In this document: one piece after another, positions 1 to 37,372 of the stretch
Position numbering within the stretch: the stretch's first letter is position 1
Layout of the letters: each line of letters opens with the position of its first letter
DNA from: a virus
Taxonomy: Duplodnaviria > Heunggongvirae > Uroviricota > Caudoviricetes
IMG/VR virus record: IMGVR_UViG_2541047798_000006
Direction: 5' to 3' (one strand)
DNA length: 41,828 nt
Notes under the pieces: generated by a model
Seen by the model: only the letters and a program-made list of their open reading frames with translations
Told to the model about the DNA's origin: nothing
The model's database searches: none
Position numbers and translations under genes: made by a program

Positions 1-9
1 TTGTCTCCC

Positions 10-291
10 TCACATCCAGCCACGAAGTTGATGTTCAACTACAACCGCGTATTCATCGAATATTGACGATTTTTTTGCATCATTAATGATGCGCACGTTT
101 ACAAAATATCCATCTTCCTTAACACATACCGGTTCGCCATCTTCAGTCAGTTCTCCGGTTTCTTTGTACACGTTACCTATCACGTCAATAAGAATATCAT
201 CCTGCATCGACTCGTCATCATAATAGCCAATGCTATCCATAAAGGCCGAAAAGTCGGCCCTGTCTGCAAATTTGAGTGTTAAATCTTTCAT
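10..291 (-). CDS. hypothetical protein immediately downstream of side tail fibre gene (tfa position, not Tfa-like)
   Basis: 93-aa ORF; its start overlaps the stf stop at 291; acidic, no recognisable Tfa motifs. Confidence 0.45.
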   Translation of the reverse strand: MKDLTLKFADRADFSAFMDSIGYYDDESMQDDILIDVIGNVYKETGELTEDGEPVCVKEDGYFVNVRIINDAKKSSIFDEYAVVVEHQLRGWM

Positions 292-2663
292 TAGATTGAC
301 TCCCCCATCTGAGCATCAGTCAATGCCTTGTGCCATATTCTGAAATTCCTGACATGACCAAATAAATGACGCAACCCGGCTGTAGTCTGGCCTCCAATAC
401 GGATAATTGCGGAGTTCTGAATATAGGACCATGTGGCTTTCTTTTCGCTGGATATACGCCCGTTACTTACTGAGCACGTAGACTGATCTGACTTTACACG
501 CATCCCCATAACCATTTTTTCAAGCGATGCGTTTTCGTTTACCCGTCTGTTAGCCAAACCTATATCACAATAAGGAAATCCGTCGTAATCTGTTGAACGA
601 CCGAAGCCAAGAATAATAGCCGCTCCGGTTTGATGACCGCCGGTATCAAAAACACGCGGTGCTGCATTTGGCGTTTTATACCAGTTCTTATGTACCTCAC
701 AAAGAACCGTAAAAGGAAGATTATAAAGATTATTCTTAATTGGAACTGTAACTATATCGCTTGCGCGGGTCGCCGCCGTCGCTCCTGATATAATAAAAGA
801 TGATACACAAGGCCCATCTTCTACTTGTGGGGTGGCCAGATAAATATAGTCACCAGATACGGTTGCCCCGCTCTGCTTAGGAGAATACTGTATCTGAGAG
901 CCTATTTTTAACTCCCCATCAATTGCCTGAATTGTTGCCTCTGCAAAAATCCATCCGGTAGCTTCGTCCTTTCTGACTCTCGCTGTAATTCTTGAGGCAG
1001 CACCGCCTGTCATATTAATTTCAAGCGTTTGTGTATCAATATACGCATCACCAAGAAAAGTTGTTGCGCTACCGTCATATTTATCAAACCGGATACGCAA
1101 CCTTACCTGCAGTTCTGTTTTAAAACGACATGAGGTTGTCACGTGTTTATTATCGCCTGAGACATCAACTGACTTTGTTGCAGCAATTGATGCCATATTA
1201 ATGGCTGAGGTTTGCCCAATCAGAGAATCGTTGCAGACAAACTTTCCATAGGTAAAACCAAAATTATCCGTCCCTGTTTCGGGCACATCCATATTTGACG
1301 ATCGCCCCCAACTGGCAGGGCTTTCCGAATTGAGCATGTAGTTTGTTCTTTGCCCCTCAATAAGCAGGCCATCACGTTCAAATCGTGGCTCGTCAATGGC
1401 AGCCTCTGTCAGCACACCAGATTTGTTAATATAGGTTGCTTTCGATGCACGTTTAAACTTAACAATCTTGTCGCCAGGCATCGTTATTTCATCGTCACCA
1501 ATAACAATTTTTTTATATGATGGCGAAAAGCCCGTAATCATATCCAGCGAATCGTTAAATGGTATCCACACATCAGGCAGCGGCTGTAAGACATATTTAT
1601 ACGGCTCCGCAGCCTGGCTTGCGTACTCTCTGGCTGCATCTTCGCTTGCTTTAGCTGCCGTCTGGCTTGCTGCCGATGCTTTCGCTGAGTTCGCAGCCGC
1701 TGTTTCGCTCACCTTTGCGTTGGTTTCACTGGTTTTTGCTGCTTTTTGACTGTTAGCTGATGCAGTAGCAGAAGCAGCCGCCGCGCTTGCAGAACTGGCT
1801 GCGGCACTCTCGCTTTGGGCCGCTGCATCCTGACTGCTTTTCGCCGCAGTTTCACTGGCTTTGGCATTCGTTTCGCTGGTCTTCGCTGCCGTCTGGCTGG
1901 ACTTTGCGTTAGTTTCACTCGTCTTCGCAGCTTTCTGGCTGTTAGCCGCAGCAGTTGCTGATCCAGCTGCTGAAGTCGCAGAACCGGCTGCCGCGCTCTC
2001 GCTTTGGGCTGCTGCAACCTGGCTGTTTTTTGCCGCAGTTTCACTGGCTTTAGCATTCGTTTCGCTGGTCTTCGCTGCCGTCTGGCTGGACTTTGCGTTG
2101 GTTTCGCTCGTCTTTGCGGCTGTCTCGCTATTTTTCGCGTTGGTTTCTGATTTTTTAGCTGCTGTTGCGGAGTTTGCCGATGCAGTCTGCGAGGCCGCTG
2201 CCGCCTGTGCGCTGTTAGCTGCATTCGTTTCTGAGGTTTTCGCCGCGTTCTTCGATGATGCCGCTGCAGTTTCGGATTTCTTTGCCGCCGCTGCGCTCTG
2301 AGAGGCGGCTTCAGCGTTGCGTGCCGCTTCTTCCACCATCTGCTCAAAGCGGCGCAGTGCCTCCGGTCGGACATCATCCTCCGTCATGGCACCGAGAAAA
2401 TCATTCAGCGTACCTGGTCTGGAACCTTCATAGACGGTAATGGTCCCGGCATGTGAAGGCGGAAAACCTTCAACCAGCAGGGTGACGCTGTACTGACCAT
2501 GCTCAACATCCATGCTGTAACGTCCGGCTTCATCCGGATTTTCAGAGGCCACCGTGTTCACCACCACCGTGCTGCTGGTTCGTCTGGCCTTCAGCACAAT
2601 GGTGCAGTTCTGTACTGGTTTTCCTGTGCCATCTTTAAGCACGCCAGAAATTTTTACTGTCAT
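291..2663 (-). CDS. stf: side tail fibre protein, lambda Stf-like N-terminus with Ala/Ser/Thr-rich repeat shaft and a different C-terminal domain
   Basis: N-terminus MTVKISGVLKDGTGKPVQNCTIVLKA...GFPPSHAGTITVYEG matches lambda Stf from memory; C-terminus ends ...HVRNFRIWHKALTDAQM, a lectin/LamG-like signature. Confidence 0.85.
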   Translation of the reverse strand: MTVKISGVLKDGTGKPVQNCTIVLKARRTSSTVVVNTVASENPDEAGRYSMDVEHGQYSVTLLVEGFPPSHAGTITVYEGSRPGTLNDFLGAMTEDDVRPEALRRFEQMVEEAARNAEAASQSAAAAKKSETAAASSKNAAKTSETNAANSAQAAAASQTASANSATAAKKSETNAKNSETAAKTSETNAKSSQTAAKTSETNAKASETAAKNSQVAAAQSESAAAGSATSAAGSATAAANSQKAAKTSETNAKSSQTAAKTSETNAKASETAAKSSQDAAAQSESAAASSASAAAASATASANSQKAAKTSETNAKVSETAAANSAKASAASQTAAKASEDAAREYASQAAEPYKYVLQPLPDVWIPFNDSLDMITGFSPSYKKIVIGDDEITMPGDKIVKFKRASKATYINKSGVLTEAAIDEPRFERDGLLIEGQRTNYMLNSESPASWGRSSNMDVPETGTDNFGFTYGKFVCNDSLIGQTSAINMASIAATKSVDVSGDNKHVTTSCRFKTELQVRLRIRFDKYDGSATTFLGDAYIDTQTLEINMTGGAASRITARVRKDEATGWIFAEATIQAIDGELKIGSQIQYSPKQSGATVSGDYIYLATPQVEDGPCVSSFIISGATAATRASDIVTVPIKNNLYNLPFTVLCEVHKNWYKTPNAAPRVFDTGGHQTGAAIILGFGRSTDYDGFPYCDIGLANRRVNENASLEKMVMGMRVKSDQSTCSVSNGRISSEKKATWSYIQNSAIIRIGGQTTAGLRHLFGHVRNFRIWHKALTDAQMGESI
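1620..2330. repeat. intragenic tandem repeats in stf shaft (about 189-nt period, with roughly 30-nt sub-repeats)
   Basis: near-identical DNA blocks starting at about 1801 and 1990; protein shows reiterated AKTSETNAKSSQTAAKTSETNAKASETAAK. Confidence 0.7.
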
Positions 2664-2674
2664 ACTTTTCCACC

Positions 2675-2708
2675 AATAAAAAAAGCCCGCAGCAGTGACG
2701 CCACGGGC
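2675..2708 (-). terminator. candidate intrinsic terminator after lom
   Basis: - strand reads gcccg...cgggc stem followed by T8. Confidence 0.5.
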
Positions 2709-2814
2709 TTCAGGACAGTGTAACTTTACGTTTCCTCAAACGCAGTTCACCCCATAAGGTGGATGAACCTGCGTATCATAACAATATTTACAGAAGATAA
2801 ATCGGCGTCTGTTG

Positions 2815-3414
2815 TCAGAAACGGTATCCGATACCAACAATAAATGCATCCGTTCGCCAGTCGCCACTGCCGGAGCCTTCATAAGCAATATCAATGGCCA
2901 CGGATTCGGTCGGGTTAAACTGCACGCCAGCCCCCCACGCCAGAGACGTGTTGCTGTGGCGACCGTCATCACTTCCGGTCAGCACATCGTGCGTTTTCCC
3001 CGTATTGTCGGTCACCTGCAGATAATCCCCGGAGAAAGTCGACACACGGCTGTAAGCCACACCCGCCATCGCATACGCGCTGAACCATTCATTCACGCGC
3101 ACAGACGGCCCCGCCATCACGCTGAACCAGCGGTTACGCACGGAATCTTCATGCCAGCGGGTATCGCTGTAATGCGTTTTTTGCTCATCTTCAGCGTTGG
3201 CATAACTGAATGACGTAATCAGCCCCAGCGTGTCCGTAAACTCATAACGGTATTTCACGTTAATCCCGTTCAGATTATCGCTGCCGGGAGCGTTCGTACG
3301 GGCATGAAGATACCCTGCGCTCAGTGTGGCCTGCTGCTCAGACGCCCATGCAGGCGCACCGGATACGGCCAGACAGATGGCTGCGGACAAAATGGCTGCA
3401 CAAACTTTACGCAT
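2815..3414 (-). CDS. lom: Lom outer membrane protein (Ail/Lom family)
   Basis: 199 aa; signal peptide; ...[24 protein letters not shown]-terminus as in lambda Lom. Confidence 0.9.
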
Positions 3415-3435
3415 AATTACCTCTCGCTTTTCTGC

Positions 3436-3462
3436 AATAAAAAAGGCACCATTTCTGGTGCC
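3436..3462 (-). terminator. candidate intrinsic terminator after J
   Basis: - strand ggcacc-agaaat-ggtgcc followed by T6, between J stop and lom start. Confidence 0.5.
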
Positions 3463-3481
3463 CGTATCTGGGTTATAAAAT

Positions 3482-6400
3482 TCAGCTAATCGTGATGCCT
3501 GTAGTGGCTTTCTTCATCACCACAACCAGCAAATCGCTGATACTTGCTGTGGGATACCAGTTATTTACCAGCCATGCTGACACCGAAAACTCCAGTGTCA
3601 TGTGACCGTGACCGGCAGGCATATCAATAACGCCACTGTAAATCAGCGTATTATCCAGCGCGGTACGGTTATAAATTTCAGCACCGTTTTTCCGCACTAT
3701 CAGACGGCATGAGGAGTAAATATCAGTATGCTCTTTCTCATGTTTAGCGCCGCTGAATGCCACCGCCGGAATAACAATCTGCCGGTCAAACGGCTGATCG
3801 TCATAAACCCTGACGGTAATGGTTCCTGATGGCCACCGCTCCGGTGCACGGGAGTCCCGGGGGAAAGCTTTGCCCACTGTTTTAACGAGATCGCCTTCAA
3901 TCTGGTTCGCGGACAATTTTCCCAGAACCCGACAGTTCTCGTTAATCGTGACGTTGTTGAGCGTCCCGGAGTTCGCATTCACGTTACCGCTGATATCGGC
4001 ATTTTTCGCCGTCAGCCGCCCGTCCGGTGTCAGGGAAAATGCCGGAGGATTACCGCCGCTGGTAATGGTGGGGGCCGTCAGGCGTTTCAGGAACACTTCA
4101 TTCATGAATATCTGATCGCCCTGACCAACAAACATCGGCTTTGTGTTGCCATTCGCAGGATTAATCATCGCAATCCTGTCTGCTGCCAGCAGCACCTGAC
4201 TCTGCATGCCGTCAGGGGTGTTCTCAATACCGGCACCGATACCCGCAATATAAAGGCGTCCGTCCTGCATCTGCTGCAGCTTCACTGCCCACATGCTGTT
4301 CAGGTTATTATTTGTATCAACCTGAACCTTCTGTATCTGCTGGATCGCTGCACTCTGGTCTTCCAGTTTCTTATTGACGGTCTGTGTTATTTCATTGCTG
4401 ACATCCGTTATGGACGTCCTGATTTCAGTCAGGTCAGGCGCAAGCTGACCGTTATCAATCTGCGTCCACAGCTCCTGAGCCAGATGGGTTTTCCCTATCT
4501 CGCCTTTGAAAAAATCCAGATAGCCTGATGCATCATCACTCGGCTGACCGACAGCCTCCACGAATGCCGATTTGCCAACGGTGTTCACACTGCGAACGTA
4601 AAAATAATAATCATGGCCCGGTTTGATATTGATACTGGCGGCTATCCAGTACAGTGCCGTACCAAGATAACGCGCGCTGGTTTCAACCTGCCTGATATCC
4701 GCAATCCGTTTTTCCGAGAACCAGAACTCAAACTGTACCGTCGGATCATAAACCGCAAGATGCGGCGTGGCGGTTATCTGAAAATAGCCCGGCGTCAGCT
4801 CAATCCGCGACGGTGCTGCCGGTGCGGCAATCCGGAATGATACCGACGCCGGATCACCCTGCTGCCCCCAGGCATTTACCGCCCTGACTGTCAGCCTGTA
4901 GTTTCCCAGCGCCAGTTGCCTGAAGCGGTATGTGGTTTCCGTCGTCCGGGCCGTGCTGACCAGCCGCTCACTGCCGTCATCCGCTGCCACGGTCAGGCGA
5001 AGCATAAAGCTCACCCCCTTCACCACCTTCGGCGTATCCCAGCGCGCCAGCACCTGGTATTCCCCGCTGTCTGCGGTGACTTCTGCGGTCAGGTGCTGCA
5101 CTGCTGGCGGCGTGACACCGTTCACCGTTCCGCTCTGGTCGCCGTCAAAGTGCGCCCCGTTATCCACGATGGCTTCTTTCTCCGGCACATGCTGCACGGC
5201 AGTGATGGCATACGTGCCGTCATCGTTCTCACGGATACTCACACAGCGGAACAGGCGCTGGCGCAGCGTCGGCAGCTTCAGCCCCCATACGCTGTATTCG
5301 GCAACACCGTCAGGAACACGGCTCACTTTTACCTTCACGCCGTCGGTGACGGACTGAACCTCCACGCTGACCGGATTGCCACTTCCGTCAACCAGGCTTA
5401 TCAGCGTGGTACCGGAGGATGGCAGCGTGATTTCACGGTCGAGCGTCAGTGTCCGCGTCTGGCTGTTCACCGCCAGCACGCGCCCGCCGATGCTGATACC
5501 CGCATAGTCATCATCACAGATTTCAATGACATCGCCCGGTACATGGCGAAGCCCTTCTGCACCCACGCTGAAGTCCACGGTCTGCGTTTCCAGCAGCTCC
5601 GTTTTAATCAGCCACAGCCCGGCGCGGTGTGCCTGCCCCCGGCTGGTACAGCCAAAGGCATCCATCTTCGTGACGTTACGACCGTAACGGAGAATGGCCT
5701 GCGTATCTTCAACAAGCTCTGTCGCCGTCTCCCAGCCGTTATTCGGGTCAATCCAGTTCACCTCAACGGCATTATGGCGGTCCTTCAGGGCGCTGAAGCT
5801 GTAGCGGAACGGCGCGCCATCATCCGGCATCACCACATTACTGCGGTTATAGGTCCACACCTTATCCGACGGTCGGTCCTGCACGAACGTCAGCGTCTGC
5901 CCGTTCCATACCGGCATACAGCGCATCGCCGAGCAGAAATCACTGAGAACATCCCACGCCTTACGCTGTGTGGTCAGGTAGGCATTACAGGTGATGCGCG
6001 GCTCCGTGCCACCAAAGCCATCCGGCACTGACTGATCGCAATACTGGCCGATGACATACAGCGCCCATTTGTCCACATCCGCCGCACCAAGACGTTTCCC
6101 CATGCCGTAGCGCGGGTGGGTCAGCATATCCCACAGACACCAGGCCATGTTGTTGCTGTATGCCGGTTTAAACGTCCCGTCCCAGATACCGCTGTATTGC
6201 CGCGTCTGCGGGTTATAGTTCGATGGCACCTGCAGAATGCGCCCGCGAAGATGATAATTACGGCTCACCTGCTGGCTGCCGAACTGTTCCGAGTCCACCT
6301 GCACGCCGACCAGTGCCGTGTTCGGGTAGCACTGTTTCACATCGATGATTTCAGTGTATGACGACCAGAGCGTTTTGTTCTGCAGCTGGTCTGTGGTGCT

Positions 6401-6961
6401 GTCCGGCGTCATCCTGCGCATCCGGATATTGAACGGTCGCGGCGGCAGGTTATCCACCACCACCGAGGCCAGATACTGCGACGTGGTTTTGCCCTTAATG
6501 GTGATGTCTTTTTCCGTCACCCAGCCACCGTTACGTTGTATCTGAACCAGCAGGCGGACTTCCGACGGATTCCGGTCACCCTTTGAGGTGGTTTCCACCA
6601 GTGCCTGCACACCGAAGGTAAAGCGCAGACGGTCGATGTTTGCAGACGTGATGGTCCGGGTGATCGGCGTGTCGTATTTCACTTCCGTACCCAGCACCGT
6701 CTCGGAACCGGAGGATTCAAATCCCTCCGGCGGTGTCTGCTCCTGCTCACCTGCCCGGAACACCACCGTGACACCGGAGATGTTGGTATTCCCCTCACTG
6801 TCCAGCACCGGTGTACTGTTCAGCAGCACGCTTTTTAATCCATCCACCGGACCTTCAACCGGCCCTTCGCTGATGGCATCGATCACACTCAGCAACTGCG
6901 TGGACTTCAGGTTGTCCTTCGCTTCGCGCGGGGTATGCCCCTTACTGCTTCCTTTACCCAT
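3482..6961 (-). CDS. J: central tail fibre / host specificity protein J
   Basis: 1159 aa; C-terminus ...[42 protein letters not shown] matches the lambda J LamB-binding end from memory. Confidence 0.95.
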
Positions 6962-7021
6962 TCCTCACGCTCCATAAATGACAAAACCGCCCGCAGGCGG
7001 TTTCACATAAAACATTTTGCA

Positions 7022-9038: not shown

Positions 9039-9367
9039 CAGTTCACCACCTGTTCAAACTCTGCGCTGAACTCAACACGCAACATACTGACCCGCGACGA
9101 CCATTTTGCGCAGGTCACCTTTATCTGCCGCCAGTCATAAGGCGGCGTCCACAGAAAGGCTTTCCAGCCTCCGTGCTCTGCCAGAAACGATTCCAACGCC
9201 GTGGCCTCCCAACGGGGGACAGAAATCGTCACGCTGTACGTTTTCAGGTTGGCATTCAGCCCGGCAGGCGCGCGCTGGGAATAGCCATCACCAAAGCGCA
9301 CCTTCCTGACGGAAGGAGCCGAAGCCACATCCATACCGGGTTTCACTTTCCAGCGGAAGGTTTTCAT
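9038..9367 (-). CDS. M: tail tip protein M
   Basis: 109 aa, lambda M-like. Confidence 0.9.
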   Translation of the reverse strand: MKTFRWKVKPGMDVASAPSVRKVRFGDGYSQRAPAGLNANLKTYSVTISVPRWEATALESFLAEHGGWKAFLWTPPYDWRQIKVTCAKWSSRVSMLRVEFSAEFEQVVN

Positions 9368-11863
9368 CGTCCACCTCCGGAGAACAGACCACCATCACGC
9401 ATCTGCCCGGTCACAACATCCATTGCCGCCTTGCGGGCCATGTCATACACTGCCTTCAGCATCTGTGGACCTGGCAGACCATTCGTGCCGTCGTTATTAA
9501 TCACCACATGGTTATTCTGCTCAAACTTCCCGGACGCCTGCGACCGGCTGTCCGCCAGGCTGCCCGGTGTACCGACATAACCACCGGTGGCATAGCCGCG
9601 CATCAGCCGGTAGAGATTCCCCACGCCAATCCGGCTGGTTGCCTCCTTCGTGAAGACAAATTCACCACGGTGAACAATCCCCGCTGGCTCATATTTGCCG
9701 CCGGTTCCCGTAAATCCCCCTGTCGCAAAATGGAATTTCGCCGCAGCTGCCTGAATGGCTGTACCGCCTGACGCGGATGCGCCGCCACCAACAGCACCGC
9801 CAATGGCGCTGCCGATACTCCCGACAATCCCCACCATTGCCTGCTTAAGCAGAATTTCTGTCATCATGGACAGCACGGATCGGGTGAAGCTGCGCCAGTT
9901 TTGTTCACTGCCGGTCAGCATCGCCGCCATATTCTGTGCAATACCATCAAAGGTCTGCGTGGCTGCACTTTTAACCTGCGACATACTGTCCGTGGCGCTC
10001 TCTTCCCACTCACTCCAGCCTGACTTGAGGCCTGCCATCCAGCTCCCGCGAAGCTGGTCTTCAGCTGCCCAGGTCTTTTTCTGCTCTGACATGACGTTAT
10101 TCAGCGCCAGCGGATTATCGCCATACTGTTCCTTCAGACGCTGTTCCGTGGCGTCCCGCGCTGCCTGCCGGTCAGTCAGCCCCCGGTTTTTCGCATCAAT
10201 GGCTGCCCGTTTTGCCCGTTGTTGCTGTGCGAATTTATCCGCCTGCTGCGCCAGCGCATTCAGGTGCTCCTGATACGTGACCTTATCGCCAAGTGCAGCC
10301 AGCTGGCGTTTGTACTCCAGCGTCTCGTCTTTATGCGCCAGCAGGGATTTCTCCTGTGCGGACAGCTGGCGACGTTGTGCCGCCTCCTCCAGTACCGCGA
10401 ACTGACTTTCTGCCTTCCACAAATCCCGGCGCTGCTGGCTGATTTTCTCATTCGCTGTCTTCCTGACGATCGCCCGCAGACACCTTCACGCCGGACTGTT
10501 TCGGCTTTTTCAGCGTCGCTTCATAATCCTTTTTCGCCGCCGCCATCAGCGTGTTGTAATCTGCCTGCAGGATTTTCCCGTCTTTCAGTGCCTTGTTCAG
10601 TTCTTCCTGACGGGCGGTATATTTCTCCAGCGGCGTCTGCAGCCGTTCGTAAGCCTTCTGCGCCTCTTCGGTATATTTCAGCCGTGACGCTTCGGTATCG
10701 CTCTGCTGCTGCGCATTTTTGTCCTGTTGACTCTGCTGTTCAGCCTTCTTTCGGGCGGCTTCAAGCGCAAGACGGGCCTTTTCACGATCATCCCAGTAAC
10801 GCGCCCGCGCTTCATCGTTAACAAAATAATCATCCTTGCGCAGATTCCAGATGTCGTCCGCTTTCTTAAACGCAGCCTCTGCCTTAATCAGCATCTCCTG
10901 AGCGGTATCAGGACGACCAATATCCAGCACCGCATCCCACATGGATTTGAATGCCCGTGCTGTCCTGTCTGCCCAGGTTTCCAGCGTGCCCATGTTCTCT
11001 TTCAGGCGTCGGGTCTGGTCATCAAACCCTTTCGTTGCGGCCTCGTTCGCCGCCTGCAATGCCCCGGCTTCATCGCCGGAACGCTGCAACTGAGCAACAT
11101 ACGCAATCTGCTCCGCCGTCACGTTATGGAACTGGCGCGCCATCGCCGTCAGCCCCGACGTCGGGTCAGTGGTCAGCTTCCCGAAGGCTTCAGCGACCTT
11201 GTCCACCTCCACACCGGATGCAGAGGAGAAACGCGCCACACTCTGGCTGATGGACGCAATCTGAGCCTCACCGCTTACCCCCGCCTTAACCAGTGCACTG
11301 AGTGACTCGCTGGTCTGGTTAAACGTCAGCCCTGCAGCCTGCCCGGCTCTGGACAGGACCAGCATACGATCTGCCGTCAGTCCCGCCTGATTACCGGAAA
11401 GGACCAGCGTTTTGTTGAAATCGGACAGGGTTGAGTTACCCTGATACCAGGCATACGCCAGCGCACCGGTCGCCACCGCCAGCGAGGTGGCCCCGACCAT
11501 CGGCAGGGTGATCGCACCGGCAAGCCCCCGGAACATGGGGATCATCCCGCCGAAGGAGTCCTTAACCTGACCACCCTGTTGCAGCAGGATCAGCCACGGG
11601 CTTTGCCCGCCTGCAAGCTGCGTGGCCACGTCGGTGAACTGTGCAGGCAGCATACGCATGGCGGCTTTATACTGCCCGACGGAAATCCCCGCTTTCTGTG
11701 CAGCCAGCGCCTGTCGGCTCAGCGACTGTTCAACGACTGCCGCTGTTTTTTTCGCATCACTTTCCGTACCGGAAAAATGACGCCTGACTCTGGCCATCTG
11801 CTCGTCAAATCTGGCCGCATCCAGACTTAAATCAACGACCAGATCGCCTACCGGTTCAGCCAT
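9364..11863 (-). pseudogene. H: tail tape measure protein H, split into two reading frames
   Basis: N-terminal piece 10448..11863 (471 aa, ends TGA at 10448) and C-terminal piece 9364..10422 (352 aa, TTG-initiated in the ORF track) are both lambda-H-like but in different frames; the second frame is open upstream to 10485. Confidence 0.7.
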
Positions 11864-12297
11864 ACCGGACTCCTCCTGCGATCCCTTCTGATACTGTCAT
11901 CAGCATTACGTCATCCTCCGTCATGCCCGCCATATCCGGGGAAGCGGGGATAACTTCATTTCCGTCCGGGTCAAAGCGGACGCCTCCGGTAAGCCCTGCC
12001 GCTTTCTGCATCAGCACATCATCTTCAGGCTCTTCGTCATCCTCACGCCGGTTCAGCAAACTGAAATCCAGCGGATGCATATCCGGATCGCTGAAAAACA
12101 GGCTGAGCACAGTGTACGTCAGCCCGGAAAAGTGCATATCCAGCAGAACATCATGAAAATAATGGGTACTGTAAAAGCGGTGCCAGTCGGCATACTCCGT
12201 GGATGACATCCCGGCAAGCATGGCGCGCCAGTCAGGTCGCCCCATCTCTCGCGCCAGTTTCAGGGCAAAACTCAGCTCACCGTCGAACACTTTCCCG
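11856..12297 (-). CDS. T: T segment of the G-T tail assembly chaperone fusion (made by -1 frameshift from G)
   Basis: -1 frame ORF overlapping the G 3' end; slippery heptamer present. Confidence 0.75.
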
Positions 12298-12694
12298 CAG
12301 AAACAGGCTCTGCAGGCCCGGCGTCCTCTGTCTGGTCAGGGGCATCATTCACCACAAACTCATACATTCCGGACAGCCGGTACACCACGTTTTCAGCATG
12401 AGAAATTGCCTCTGTAGGCCAGGTGGTAAGCACTTCCTGCTCAATCTGTTTAACGGCTTCATTCATGGACGGCATCTGCGTCTTCTTCGGATGGTTATGC
12501 CACAGGGACATCGCCACCACAAAAGCGCCGGTTCTGATGGCGTCTTCCACAGTAAACTTCCGGTTGCTGTCTGACTCCGCCTGTTCTGCCTGCCGTTTCA
12601 TCAGGGCGAGATGCTCAATACGCTGTAGGGCTGACAGTTCAGAAAGCGTGACGGTCACGCCGTTATGTTCAAATGATTCGGTTTTCAGGAACAT
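12272..12694 (-). CDS. G: tail assembly chaperone G
   Basis: 140 aa MFLKTESFEHNGVTVTLSELSALQRIEHL... Confidence 0.9.
   Translation of the reverse strand: MFLKTESFEHNGVTVTLSELSALQRIEHLALMKRQAEQAESDSNRKFTVEDAIRTGAFVVAMSLWHNHPKKTQMPSMNEAVKQIEQEVLTTWPTEAISHAENVVYRLSGMYEFVVNDAPDQTEDAGPAEPVSAGKCSTVS
12291..12297 (-). other. programmed -1 ribosomal frameshift slippery site G GGA AAG
   Basis: + strand ctttccc at 12290-12296, read as GGGAAAG on the - strand near the end of G. Confidence 0.7.
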
Positions 12695-24997: not shown

Positions 24998-25258
24998 TTA
25001 TGGTATACCGCGCCTCTGAACAGGGGCGCGTTTCTGGCAACAGCTCGTCCCCTTCACATAACCCGGCAGCAACATCCAGGAAGACCTGGCTGCTGCCTCA
25101 TAAAACTCCAGCGCGGCACCTTCAACACGGTCCAGCGAGATGTCCAGGTCAAAAATTTCACCGTCAAAGCGTTTTTTGTCCCGTAACGCTAAAGTTACCG
25201 TAACTTTATTCTCAAAATTGCGGATCCCTTTCACAATCAGTTCATAGTTTTGAGTCAT
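24998..25258 (-). CDS. small protein between holin and endolysin (possibly YdfR/DUF1327-like, maybe C-terminally altered)
   Basis: 86 aa MTQNYELIVKGIRNFENKVTVTLALRDKKRFDGEIFDLD...; GGAG SD directly after the S stop; family from memory. Confidence 0.45.
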   Translation of the reverse strand: MTQNYELIVKGIRNFENKVTVTLALRDKKRFDGEIFDLDISLDRVEGAALEFYEAAARSSWMLLPGYVKGTSCCQKRAPVQRRGIP

Positions 25259-25262
25259 TGAA

Positions 25263-25478
25263 TTACTCTCCCCGTGCCGCCTTACGACGGTCCTCTCTGA
25301 TTTTGAAATACAGGTTAGTCAGATATGTCAGCAGCCCAAACAGCAGACTCCCCAGCACGCCTATTGCCGCCCACTGAGACGGGGAAACCCTGTCCAGCAA
25401 CTGCAGGAACCAGTAGCCCGTTCCCACCGCTGACGTAGTGTATGACACACCTGTTGTGATTTTTTCCATCTGGTCCAT
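25263..25478 (-). CDS. S: pinholin, phage 21 S-type, dual-start
   Basis: 71 aa [71 protein letters not shown]; two Met codons at positions 1 and 4; GGGAG SD. Confidence 0.85.
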
Positions 25479-25785
25479 ACCCCGTCTCCCGTTATCCGGA
25501 AGCTGACAACAATAAAAAAGCCACCAGTTAACTACTGATGGCTCTGATAACTCATGCAAGCGTCTCAGACGATCCACTGACACTATCGGTGAGTTTAACG
25601 ATACCTTCCATTTGACTGGCTCACTTTTTATGATGATGCCGGTGCATTTATCTCCAGCACCAGACTTTCTATCTCAACGCCATACGTTGCATTTTTGGTA
25701 ATATCCGTCAGCGTCAGTGCATTTAGTCCCACTGCCAGACTGTCTTTTATGGCCTGGAATGCCGGGCCAGTACGATGACGTAGTA

Positions 25786-25989
25786 TCACTCCGGCTCAGT
25801 TGCACCGCTGACCACCACATCACCTTCTGCTGCAATCGCCTGCATCAGGGTATAAGGGGTTATGGCCACCGGACTACCAAACGGCTGCCAGCCCTCTTTC
25901 AGTTTATGTGTCAGCTTTTCCGCAAGATCTGACGGCGGCGCCGCCCTGACAACATCATAGTGTTTAAATGCCATGGTTCTTTCCACCAT
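25786..25989 (-). CDS. small hypothetical protein upstream of lysis cassette (possibly DUF1737-like)
   Basis: 67-aa ORF ...MAFKHYDVVRAAPPSDLAEKLTHKLKEGWQPFGSPVAITPYTLMQAIAAEG... Confidence 0.45.
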   Translation of the reverse strand: MVERTMAFKHYDVVRAAPPSDLAEKLTHKLKEGWQPFGSPVAITPYTLMQAIAAEGDVVVSGATEPE

Positions 25990-26234
25990 CTGAAAAATAA
26001 TTCTTTAAAATGCCTGACATGTAATACAGAAAAAAACACAAAACCATACCTTAAATAAAAACCTGATTATCAAGCAGATATGCATGGATAAACTACAAGA
26101 CGAGATATAAACCACCCTGTATTTAAATAAACAATAAACAACATCAGAAAAATAATTCTGCTCTATGGTTTAATTCAAAAATATCATTTATACTTTTCAG
26201 AACATCACCAGCAAGGCATAAACAAGGAAAGTAA

Positions 26235-27481: not shown

Positions 27482-27558
27482 TGGCGCGCTGTACTGGATT
27501 CGAACCAGTGACCGATTGCTTAGAAGGCAATTGCTCTGTCCGGCTGAGCTAACAACGC
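27482..27558 (-). tRNA. tRNA-Arg (anticodon UCU)
   Basis: 77 nt; acceptor GCGTTGT/ACAGCGC, T-loop GGTTCGAATCC, anticodon loop CTTCTAA, 3' GCCA. Confidence 0.85.
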
Positions 27559-27659: not shown

Positions 27660-27735
27660 TGGTGGCCCTTGCTGGATTTGAACCAGCGACCTGGCGATTA
27701 TGAGTCGCTCGCTCTCACCACTGAGCTAAAGGGCC
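27660..27735 (-). tRNA. tRNA-Ile2-like (anticodon CAU; could be read as Met)
   Basis: 76 nt; closely resembles E. coli ileX from memory; anticodon loop CTCATAA. Confidence 0.85.
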
Positions 27736-33153: not shown

Positions 33154-33555
33154 TTATCCCTGATAAAATGCCAGTATGCGCTGCATAACTTCACTCATCC
33201 GGCACTCGCGACAGATTATGTTTAGGCGACTGTCGTAGCGACGTATTTCTCCATCAGGTAACGACCAGATAAGGTCCGGATCAACCACAGCTGTTTTCTT
33301 CACCTTTGCCCTCGATAGTTTTTTGCGGGCGTTTTGCCAGTCCTTACGCGCCTGTTCAGACGGGAATAACCCGTAGCCGGAGTTGTATACATCGCCACTG
33401 GCTACCAGCTCTCTGGCAAGAACGCTCATCAGATATCTAGTCGCACCTGTTTTAGCTTCCAGTTGCCGTAACGTCTCACGACCGCTCTGGCGCACGAGTT
33501 CCACCACCTGCCCTTTAATTTTTTCCCGCTCTTCTTGTGTAAAAACTTTTGCCAC
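33154..33555 (-). CDS. hypothetical protein (basic, CxxC motif)
   Basis: 133-aa ORF downstream of the replication gene. Confidence 0.45.
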   Translation of the reverse strand: MAKVFTQEEREKIKGQVVELVRQSGRETLRQLEAKTGATRYLMSVLARELVASGDVYNSGYGLFPSEQARKDWQNARKKLSRAKVKKTAVVDPDLIWSLPDGEIRRYDSRLNIICRECRMSEVMQRILAFYQG

Positions 33556-33595
33556 AAGTCCCCCTTAAAATTACCTCATGACCTGAAATCAAAAC

Positions 33596-34561
33596 TTATC
33601 CTCTGAAACCAGGCGGAATTTCTGTATCCGGTTCAGAAATATGATTCACACAACGCTGTACAGGTGAACGTCCCAGGCGGATGACCAGTTCGTCCCATTT
33701 TTCGCGGAGTTTTGACGGGCTCATGATGTTTTTTACCCAGAATGGATCCCGCTGTACCCGACCAAACATTTCGCAAATTTGTCTGTGGCTTCTGCCATCC
33801 AGCATCCGCATTGTGCGCACGTCATTGGCCCAGGCTGTCCAGTTAGGCTCTTTTGGTCGCATGATCTCTCCATCGTCGCTGGCAGCCTGTTCGTAAAGGT
33901 TCACGATCCGCCCCCAAATCCACTGCGCACACGCCAAATCCTCCCTGCTACCCCACTGGCGTTTTTTCACACTAAACACAACCGCGTCGGGGTTCCGGGT
34001 TAAAAAATCCTGTTCAGTCGTCTGCGGGTCCGGTTGCGAAGCTTCCGGACGAAAAGTGTTTTTATTCTCTGTAGTAATCTCTGTTGTATTCTCTGTAAGA
34101 TCATCAGGCCATTTTGACCCGATGACATTGGGTCGTTTTGAACCAATGGAGCGTTTCATTTTGACCTCTTCCATCGTGTCATTTTGACCTGATGGAGCGG
34201 CGCATTTTGAACCGATGGATTCGTTCAATTTGCCACCATCTAAAAGCTCGCTCCCATAGTTGATCGTGTAGAAATTGGTCATATCGCGCTTTGATTTATT
34301 GAGCTTTTCACAACGCAAAAGCCCCTGCGTTTTCAGACTTGCAAACGCGCGTTTTAACGTTGACTCTGACCAGAATGGGAACTGTTCCAGCCATTGTTCC
34401 GTTGTGTTATAAATCCAGCGAACACCATCACATTCCATACCGGAGTTGGTATCTCTCAACCAGTAGTGCAGTTGTTGCAAAACAATGGCTTCGTTTAAGC
34501 CGATTTTCATTGCCAGCTGCGTGTTTATAACCAGTGGGCGTTCAGCAAAAAGAAGACTCAT
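33596..34561 (-). CDS. phage replication protein (replisome organiser N-domain, DnaT-like C-domain)
   Basis: N-terminus ...MKIGLNEAIVLQQLHYWL...; start trimmed to the ATG at 34561. Confidence 0.6.
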   Translation of the reverse strand: MSLLFAERPLVINTQLAMKIGLNEAIVLQQLHYWLRDTNSGMECDGVRWIYNTTEQWLEQFPFWSESTLKRAFASLKTQGLLRCEKLNKSKRDMTNFYTINYGSELLDGGKLNESIGSKCAAPSGQNDTMEEVKMKRSIGSKRPNVIGSKWPDDLTENTTEITTENKNTFRPEASQPDPQTTEQDFLTRNPDAVVFSVKKRQWGSREDLACAQWIWGRIVNLYEQAASDDGEIMRPKEPNWTAWANDVRTMRMLDGRSHRQICEMFGRVQRDPFWVKNIMSPSKLREKWDELVIRLGRSPVQRCVNHISEPDTEIPPGFRG

Positions 34562-37198: not shown

Positions 37199-37372
37199 AA
37201 AGTGAATTTTGTGATGCGGTGAATGCGGCTGAGCGCACGCGGAACAGTTAAAACCGAAAACTGTGTTATGGGTGGATTCTCTGTATCCGGCGTTAATTGT
37301 TAACTGGTTAACGTCACCTGGAGGCACCAGGCACCGCATCAACAAAGTTCATTTGTAAAAATGGAGATAATT

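Follow-up and report, generated by a model that had tools for sequence, protein, structure and literature searches.

The length of the lambda tail is set by the full-length tape measure protein gpH, as described by the protein-ruler model that came from the work of Katsura and Hendrix. In the lambdoid element considered here, the gene corresponding to H is divided between two reading frames, which raises the question of whether this split is a genuine lesion, an artefact of assembly or a site of translational recoding, and what it would mean for the capacity of the element to build tails. We addressed this question on IMG/VR record IMGVR_UViG_2541047798_000006, hereafter the window, i.e. the whole 41,828-nt stretch of DNA that was analysed, whose numbering is used throughout. 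Over its first 25 kb, the window shows 100% identity to Escherichia coli O16:H6 strain CU37RT-2 (NZ_CP082774.1, from position 2447151), and the integrase gene of this strain ends at position 2488978 of NZ_CP082774.1, which corresponds to the end of the window. CU37RT-2 is a gut isolate of phylogroup B2 and sequence type ST144 from a non-IBD context (PMC8553045). Our overall reading, to which we attribute a probability of about 90%, is that a 62-nt deletion made H a pseudogene in the ydfJ prophage of ST144, and that this prophage is presumably tail-defective when alone.

A tape measure gene in two reading frames

The sequence-only reading of the window had interpreted two ORFs of the minus strand as the N- and C-terminal parts of a lambda-H-like tape measure protein lying in different frames, and the ORF list, the Pfam searches and the alignments all agreed with this interpretation (Table 1). 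The 471-aa ORF carries a TMP_2 domain (PF06791; residues 54-256, E = 2.3e-70) and the 352-aa ORF a Tape_meas_lam_C domain (PF09718; residues 126-200, E = 1e-21), while the locus sits between the G/T chaperone genes and M-L-K-I-J, as expected of gpH-type genes. The ends of the two frames were also found as they had been described. According to the ORF list and the sequence, the first ORF finishes with SAGDRQEDSE followed by TGA, its terminal stretch reading ...KVSAGDRQEDSE before the TGA at 10450-10448 (minus strand). The second frame is open upstream as far as a TGA at 10488-10486 and reads RCLRAIVRKTANEKISQQRRDLWKAESQ. The 352-aa ORF itself begins at a TTG start with the residues MWKAESQ, and the open frame to which it belongs reads ...TANEKISQQRRDLWKAESQ. 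This frame is +1 relative to that of the N-terminal ORF, and the C-terminal fragment corresponds to gpH residues about 491/503 to 853.

The alignment to lambda H that the same reading had proposed gave two pieces separated by a single gap, with 96.4% DNA identity over the full length of the H stretch (J02459 10542-13103); the identity to the H gene of phage 434 reached 97.5%, again in two pieces. Lambda gpH is a protein of 853 aa, and the prophage gene has in common with it both its position, from G-T to M-L-K-I-J, and its Pfam domains, but differs from it in missing lambda nucleotides 11949-12010 and in being divided into ORFs of 471 aa and 352 aa. In the window, no single frame of about 853 codons joins the N-terminal end of H to the tip-binding C terminus, and PGAP annotates the gene as 'phage tail tape measure protein, frameshifted' (NZ_CP082774.1, 2456514-2459013). 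Because of the 62-nt deletion, the stop after codon 471 and the position of the remainder in the +1 frame, the split H can be classified, on sequence grounds, as a pseudogene of the lambda gpH family, without functional membership of this family.

Table 1. Features of the split H gene and of its neighbours in the window
Feature	Position	Strand	Remarks
Whole tape measure gene, lambda H homologue (putative pseudogene)	9364..11863	-	2500 nt vs 2562 intact
N-terminal fragment ORF, 471 aa	10448..11863	-	gpH residues 1-470 plus one new Glu, then TGA
Premature stop TGA from frame change	10448..10450	-	two codons past junction
C-terminal fragment, +1 frame	9364..10485	-	open from 10485; 352 aa from TTG at 10422
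Deletion junction GAC-AG-CG	10453..10457	-	from alignments to intact H of MRSN346647, GmF052 and lambda
G-T programmed -1 slippery heptamer GGGAAAG	12290..12296	-	intact, upstream of H
Gene G	12272..12694	-	full length
Gene T	11856..12290	-	full length
Gene M, 109 aa	9038..9367	-	overlaps end of H; intact

The deletion, its carriers and its intact sister allele

A short out-of-frame deletion had been put forward as the cause of the split, together with the statement that lambda H has roughly 20 more residues between the two fragments, and both propositions proved right. In GmF052, an intact 2562-nt H is found in the same prophage at the same site, and the allele of the carriers differs from it solely by one gap of 62 nt; intact relatives have 62 extra nt at this place, i.e. 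20 residues plus 2 nt. In the alignments with MRSN346647, GmF052 and lambda, the missing 62 nt correspond to lambda nucleotides 11949-12010, give or take 2 nt, and the gap starts at gene position 1408 of H, removing gpH residues A471-G490 (AHAALLTLQAELRTLEKHAG) plus two bases. At the breakpoints, the intact allele reads GAAGAC-AG-TGCTCATGC...CATGCCGG-AG-CGAATGAG, whereas the window reads GAAGAC-AG-CGAATGAG at the junction. The AG at 10456-10455 is a 2-nt microhomology found at both breakpoints of the intact allele, which leaves the placement of the gap ambiguous by 2 nt, and GAA-TGA is created immediately past the junction. No longer direct repeat was found at the breakpoints, which share AG only, or three of four bases when AGTG and AGCG are compared. 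One 62-bp deletion between two AG dinucleotides has thus hit the H gene of a lambda-like prophage, its simplest origin being replication slippage or illegitimate recombination; a slippage mechanism is inferred, but a microhomology of two bases is a minimal argument for it and the lost segment is not stabilised by a hairpin. Chance does not come into question here: the lesion sets this allele directly apart, at the sequence level, from an intact one that is identical in every other respect. Hairpin-assisted slippage was also considered and set aside: the intact 97-nt region, folded as DNA, reached -14 kcal/mol (z = -0.27 vs shuffles).

An assembly error had been left as the alternative, according to which H would really be intact and 62 nt would have been lost during a nanopore-based assembly. 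CU37RT-2 was indeed assembled from nanopore reads with the basecaller Guppy 3.2.2 (PMC8553045), and this kind of assembly is prone to indels. However, nanopore errors are homopolymer indels of 1-2 nt and not clean losses of 62 nt, and the lesion recurs far beyond this strain. Using a 41-mer query spanning the junction, which is unable to seed on intact alleles, we matched it in 7 of 5,426 complete E. coli genomes (CU37RT-2, GN02050, GN06667, GN05476, AR_0017, SCU-125 and B2.3), always at the ydfJ/sitABCD locus; these genomes were assembled independently by different laboratories and their junctions are identical. In addition, a large protein collection contained the exact 471-aa product on 77 contigs and the exact 352-aa product on 74, drafts and metagenome assemblies being among the roughly 75 contigs concerned. 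The named draft carriers of the truncated products include KOEGE 10 (25a) and HVH 175, and the junction was seen in the drafts GCA_000458745.1 and GCA_000459595.1 as well as in several human-gut metagenome assemblies. Every contig copy that was fetched displayed the order E-FI-FII-Z-U-V-G-T-H-M-L-K-I-J with the junction present, and the four carriers fetched with their surroundings all had the ydfJ/sitABCD site and an H marked 'frameshifted' by PGAP. The lesion is reproducible across independent complete, draft and metagenome assemblies, so that an assembly error behind the split H is effectively refuted and deserves practically no credence. The same 41-mer had no match in 50,697 phage records.

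The comparison of the carriers with GmF052 also informs on the age of the genuine 62-nt deletion. Across the five genomes compared, no difference was seen in the tail genes Z-T or in 5.1 kb of chromosomal flank, and the C-terminal half of H shows 0 substitutions when set against the intact allele, so that no relaxed selection can be shown there. A 301-nt junction query revealed one H-like place in GmF052 and one in SCU-125, and two in CU37RT-2 and most other carriers. Because its genome has one H-like place only, the GmF052 allele is more likely ancestral than repaired. As for CU37RT-2, the second lambda-H-like gene located elsewhere in its genome might supply gpH in trans, or might repair the deletion by gene conversion. 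Judging from these alignments, the deletion is a single and recent event, inherited within one clone.

Subsequent divergence among the carriers is concentrated in dense patches, notably in the J, lom and stf region at 1-7000 of the window, with 83 differences in J, 71 in lom-stf and 69 in M-I (B2.3), and the head genes and chromosome flank show 0-5 differences between near-identical prophage copies. The dense patches of the tail tip indicate repeated gene conversion even in an H-defective element, the donors of which were probably co-resident lambdoid prophages. Mosaicism of L/K/I/J was likewise found among the metagenome copies. Differences in the gene calls of K and I among these metagenome copies were attributed to gene-caller effects and to mosaic patches, K being intact in all of them. 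In SCU-125, an IS903B insertion splits gpJ and represents a second tail lesion, later than the H deletion, which is consistent with relaxed selection on the tail genes.

The product of the GmF052 allele has 21 differences from lambda gpH over 853 residues, and these differences are clustered, 10 of the 21 falling at residues 817-840, i.e. in the gpI-contacting helix (818-842). Similarly, the last ~50 nt of H (region 9364-9420; gene positions 2445-2493) are mosaic and hold 14 of the 15 differences from MRSN346647. The 3' end of H may represent a module boundary that co-varies with the tip genes.

Translation of the split gene and consequences for tail assembly

The two frames overlap by 36 nt, and one +1 shift would rejoin them. 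A +1 frameshift or a termination-reinitiation event (10485-10448) could yield an H of ~832 aa, or the two fragments could assemble non-covalently, and the phage would then remain viable, its tail being slightly shortened. An AGGA is present a few bases before the stop, and 'saviour' frameshifting at indels is reportedly a documented phenomenon, covered by a review, which we counted in favour of a recoding of H. However, the overlap (GTG AAG GTG TCT GCG GGC GAT CGT CAG GAA GAC AGC GAA TGA) contains no known +1/-2 motif: +1 motifs of the CUU-U, CCC-U or UUU-Y type are absent from it and, by inference from prfB and other known sites, the tRNA-Glu on GAA could not re-pair on AAU. Reinitiation fares no better, as neither an ATG nor a GTG restart codon was found in the overlap, and the only standard start, the TTG at 10422, has a GGGA just 1 nt upstream, too close for a Shine-Dalgarno sequence. 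Furthermore, the two-frame arrangement is restricted to one clone and found in no isolated phage, the opposite of what conserved recoding sites show, and a single intact H frame is found in lambda, 434, 21 and HK630, among others, as well as in most of the 3,703 matching E. coli genomes. The comparison with the -1 frameshift of lambda G-T is instructive in this respect: the latter, whose site is intact immediately upstream in the tail operon of the window, relies on a slippery site, whereas the H split has no slippery site, would need a +1 shift and occurs in one clone only. The programmed frameshift evoked by the sequence-only reading was consequently dismissed, intact relatives reading through H in one frame and the overlap being devoid of a slippery motif; with the motif absent and the arrangement unconserved, the split H is not a programmed frameshift. 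Its rescue by recoding is unlikely, and a viable phage obtained by recoding, by reinitiation or from two separate fragments seems to us highly improbable.

The prophage should then be considered with a broken H. Lambda gpH is a trimer inside the tail tube, and its C-terminal helix (residues 818-842) makes up a coiled coil that rests on the gpI tripod of the tail tip (PMC10721106). In the window, H is translated no further than codon 471, and the other 40% of the gene lies in a different frame. By removing codons 471-490, shifting the frame by +1 and halting translation after 471 residues, the deletion severs the C-terminal 40% of gpH, including the coiled coil that seats it on the gpI plug of the tail tip, from the N-terminal ruler and chaperone-binding part. 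Without the tip-binding end, the 471-aa fragment should neither nucleate nor measure a tail, and the prophage alone would be expected to produce DNA-filled heads and no functional tails. The chaperone genes G and T are unaffected by the deletion. Because no essential morphogenesis gene other than H is broken, it is specifically tails that the prophage, on its own, is probably unable to build.

The deletions of lambda H studied by Katsura and Hendrix offer a point of comparison: being in frame, they reportedly keep the C-terminal tip-binding end and give viable phages with proportionally shorter tails. The prophage deletion hits the same central, helical part of gpH but, unlike them, shifts the reading frame, which leaves the C terminus disconnected.

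A truncation of this kind could also be functional and selected, either because the fragment poisons the tails of other lambdoid phages or because the loss of tails locks a sitABCD prophage in the chromosome. In this respect, the allele persists in at least ~75 assemblies, across isolates whose tail-tip genes have been reshuffled by recombination, and the prophage carries sitABCD and further cargo (lom, iraM and hokD). Nevertheless, the carriers are essentially one clone with 0 flank differences, so that vertical inheritance suffices for this persistence, and an intact-H sister exists within the same clone. In addition, the late genes are silent in the lysogen and a poison fragment would rarely be made. 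A selected truncation is thus very doubtful. More broadly, we see scarcely any chance that the split H is still alive in one of these forms, be it through recoding or reinitiation, as a two-piece ruler, or as a dominant-negative 471-aa fragment acting against other lambdoid phages; if true, the dominant-negative fragment would explain the retention of the allele in at least ~75 assemblies.

The disrupted H is an ordinary case of prophage decay. Inactivation of prophages by small deletions is commonplace, and the lesion is already known to annotation, RefSeq labelling H as 'frameshifted', so that its importance beyond annotation is small. It nonetheless means that an otherwise complete, sitABCD-carrying prophage of B2/ST144 is probably locked in the chromosome, tail-less by itself. 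GmF052 on one side, and CU37RT-2, AR_0017 and others on the other, provide a natural isogenic pair for the earliest step of prophage domestication, and the 62-nt junction can be used as a lineage marker.

Gene content and integration site of the prophage

Apart from the split H, the sole broken essential morphogenesis gene, the annotation shows every head, tail, lysis, integration and regulatory gene of the window at full length. The early and regulatory genes comprise int, xis, exo, kil, sieB, a repressor/cro pair, an O-like gene, hokD, rem, rusA and Q, and Q is followed by two tRNAs, then by the holin, lysozyme and Rz genes. Morphogenesis is represented by nu1, A, W, B, C, D, E, FI, FII, Z, U, V, G, T, H, M, L, K, I and J, beyond which lie lom and the tail fibre genes. 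The sitABCD genes are located just outside the window, flanked by the tail fibre genes and the ydfJ' junction, i.e. inside the prophage boundaries. The spacer between int and rspB encodes the N-terminus of YdfJ (MTIEKHERSTKDLVKAAVSGWLGTALEFMDF), and the remainder of ydfJ is found past sitA. Both ends of the prophage are thus present, sitABCD is cargo and the site is that of Qin. From this arrangement, the element is a lambdoid prophage of the Qin site, ~46 kb long, with both ends present and an iron/manganese transporter as cargo. No att direct repeats of at least 12 nt were found between the prophage ends, which a shorter and imperfect att core around the ydfJ codons ...EFMDF... explains.

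Qin of E. coli K-12 and this prophage share an integration site, where ydfJ is split and int has rspB as its neighbour, and have hokD, rem, the dicB/kil region, nohD and ynfO-like genes in common. Qin has lost most of its structural genes, whereas the ~46-kb prophage is complete, with H as its only broken essential gene. The prophage is thus at a very early stage of decay, resembling the first step on the path that led to Qin.

Several minor observations accompany this gene content. The two tRNAs downstream of Q, on the minus strand at 27482-27558 and 27660-27735, are a tRNA-Arg(TCT) and a tRNA with a CAT anticodon, the latter being called Met by ARAGORN and Ile by PGAP (presumably a lysidine-modified Ile2 type); such a pair of rare-codon tRNAs recalls the ileZ-argN-argO region found in Stx phages. 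The gene annotated by PGAP as 'phage replication protein O' (321 aa; 33154-34561, minus strand) has no Pfam match at E<=1e-3. It is directly followed by a DUF977 gene, and the window has no annotated helicase loader of the P or DnaC type; this could be an unusual or an incomplete replication module. A 19-aa ORF called 'tail fiber protein' by PGAP lies between the holin gene and a DUF1737 remnant, and a DicB fragment, one of the older scars of the element, is found near kil, at about 37260-37350. Finally, remnants of DUF1327 and DUF1737 in the lysis region, at about 25080-26000, represent further older scars, which are also present in GmF052, where H is intact.
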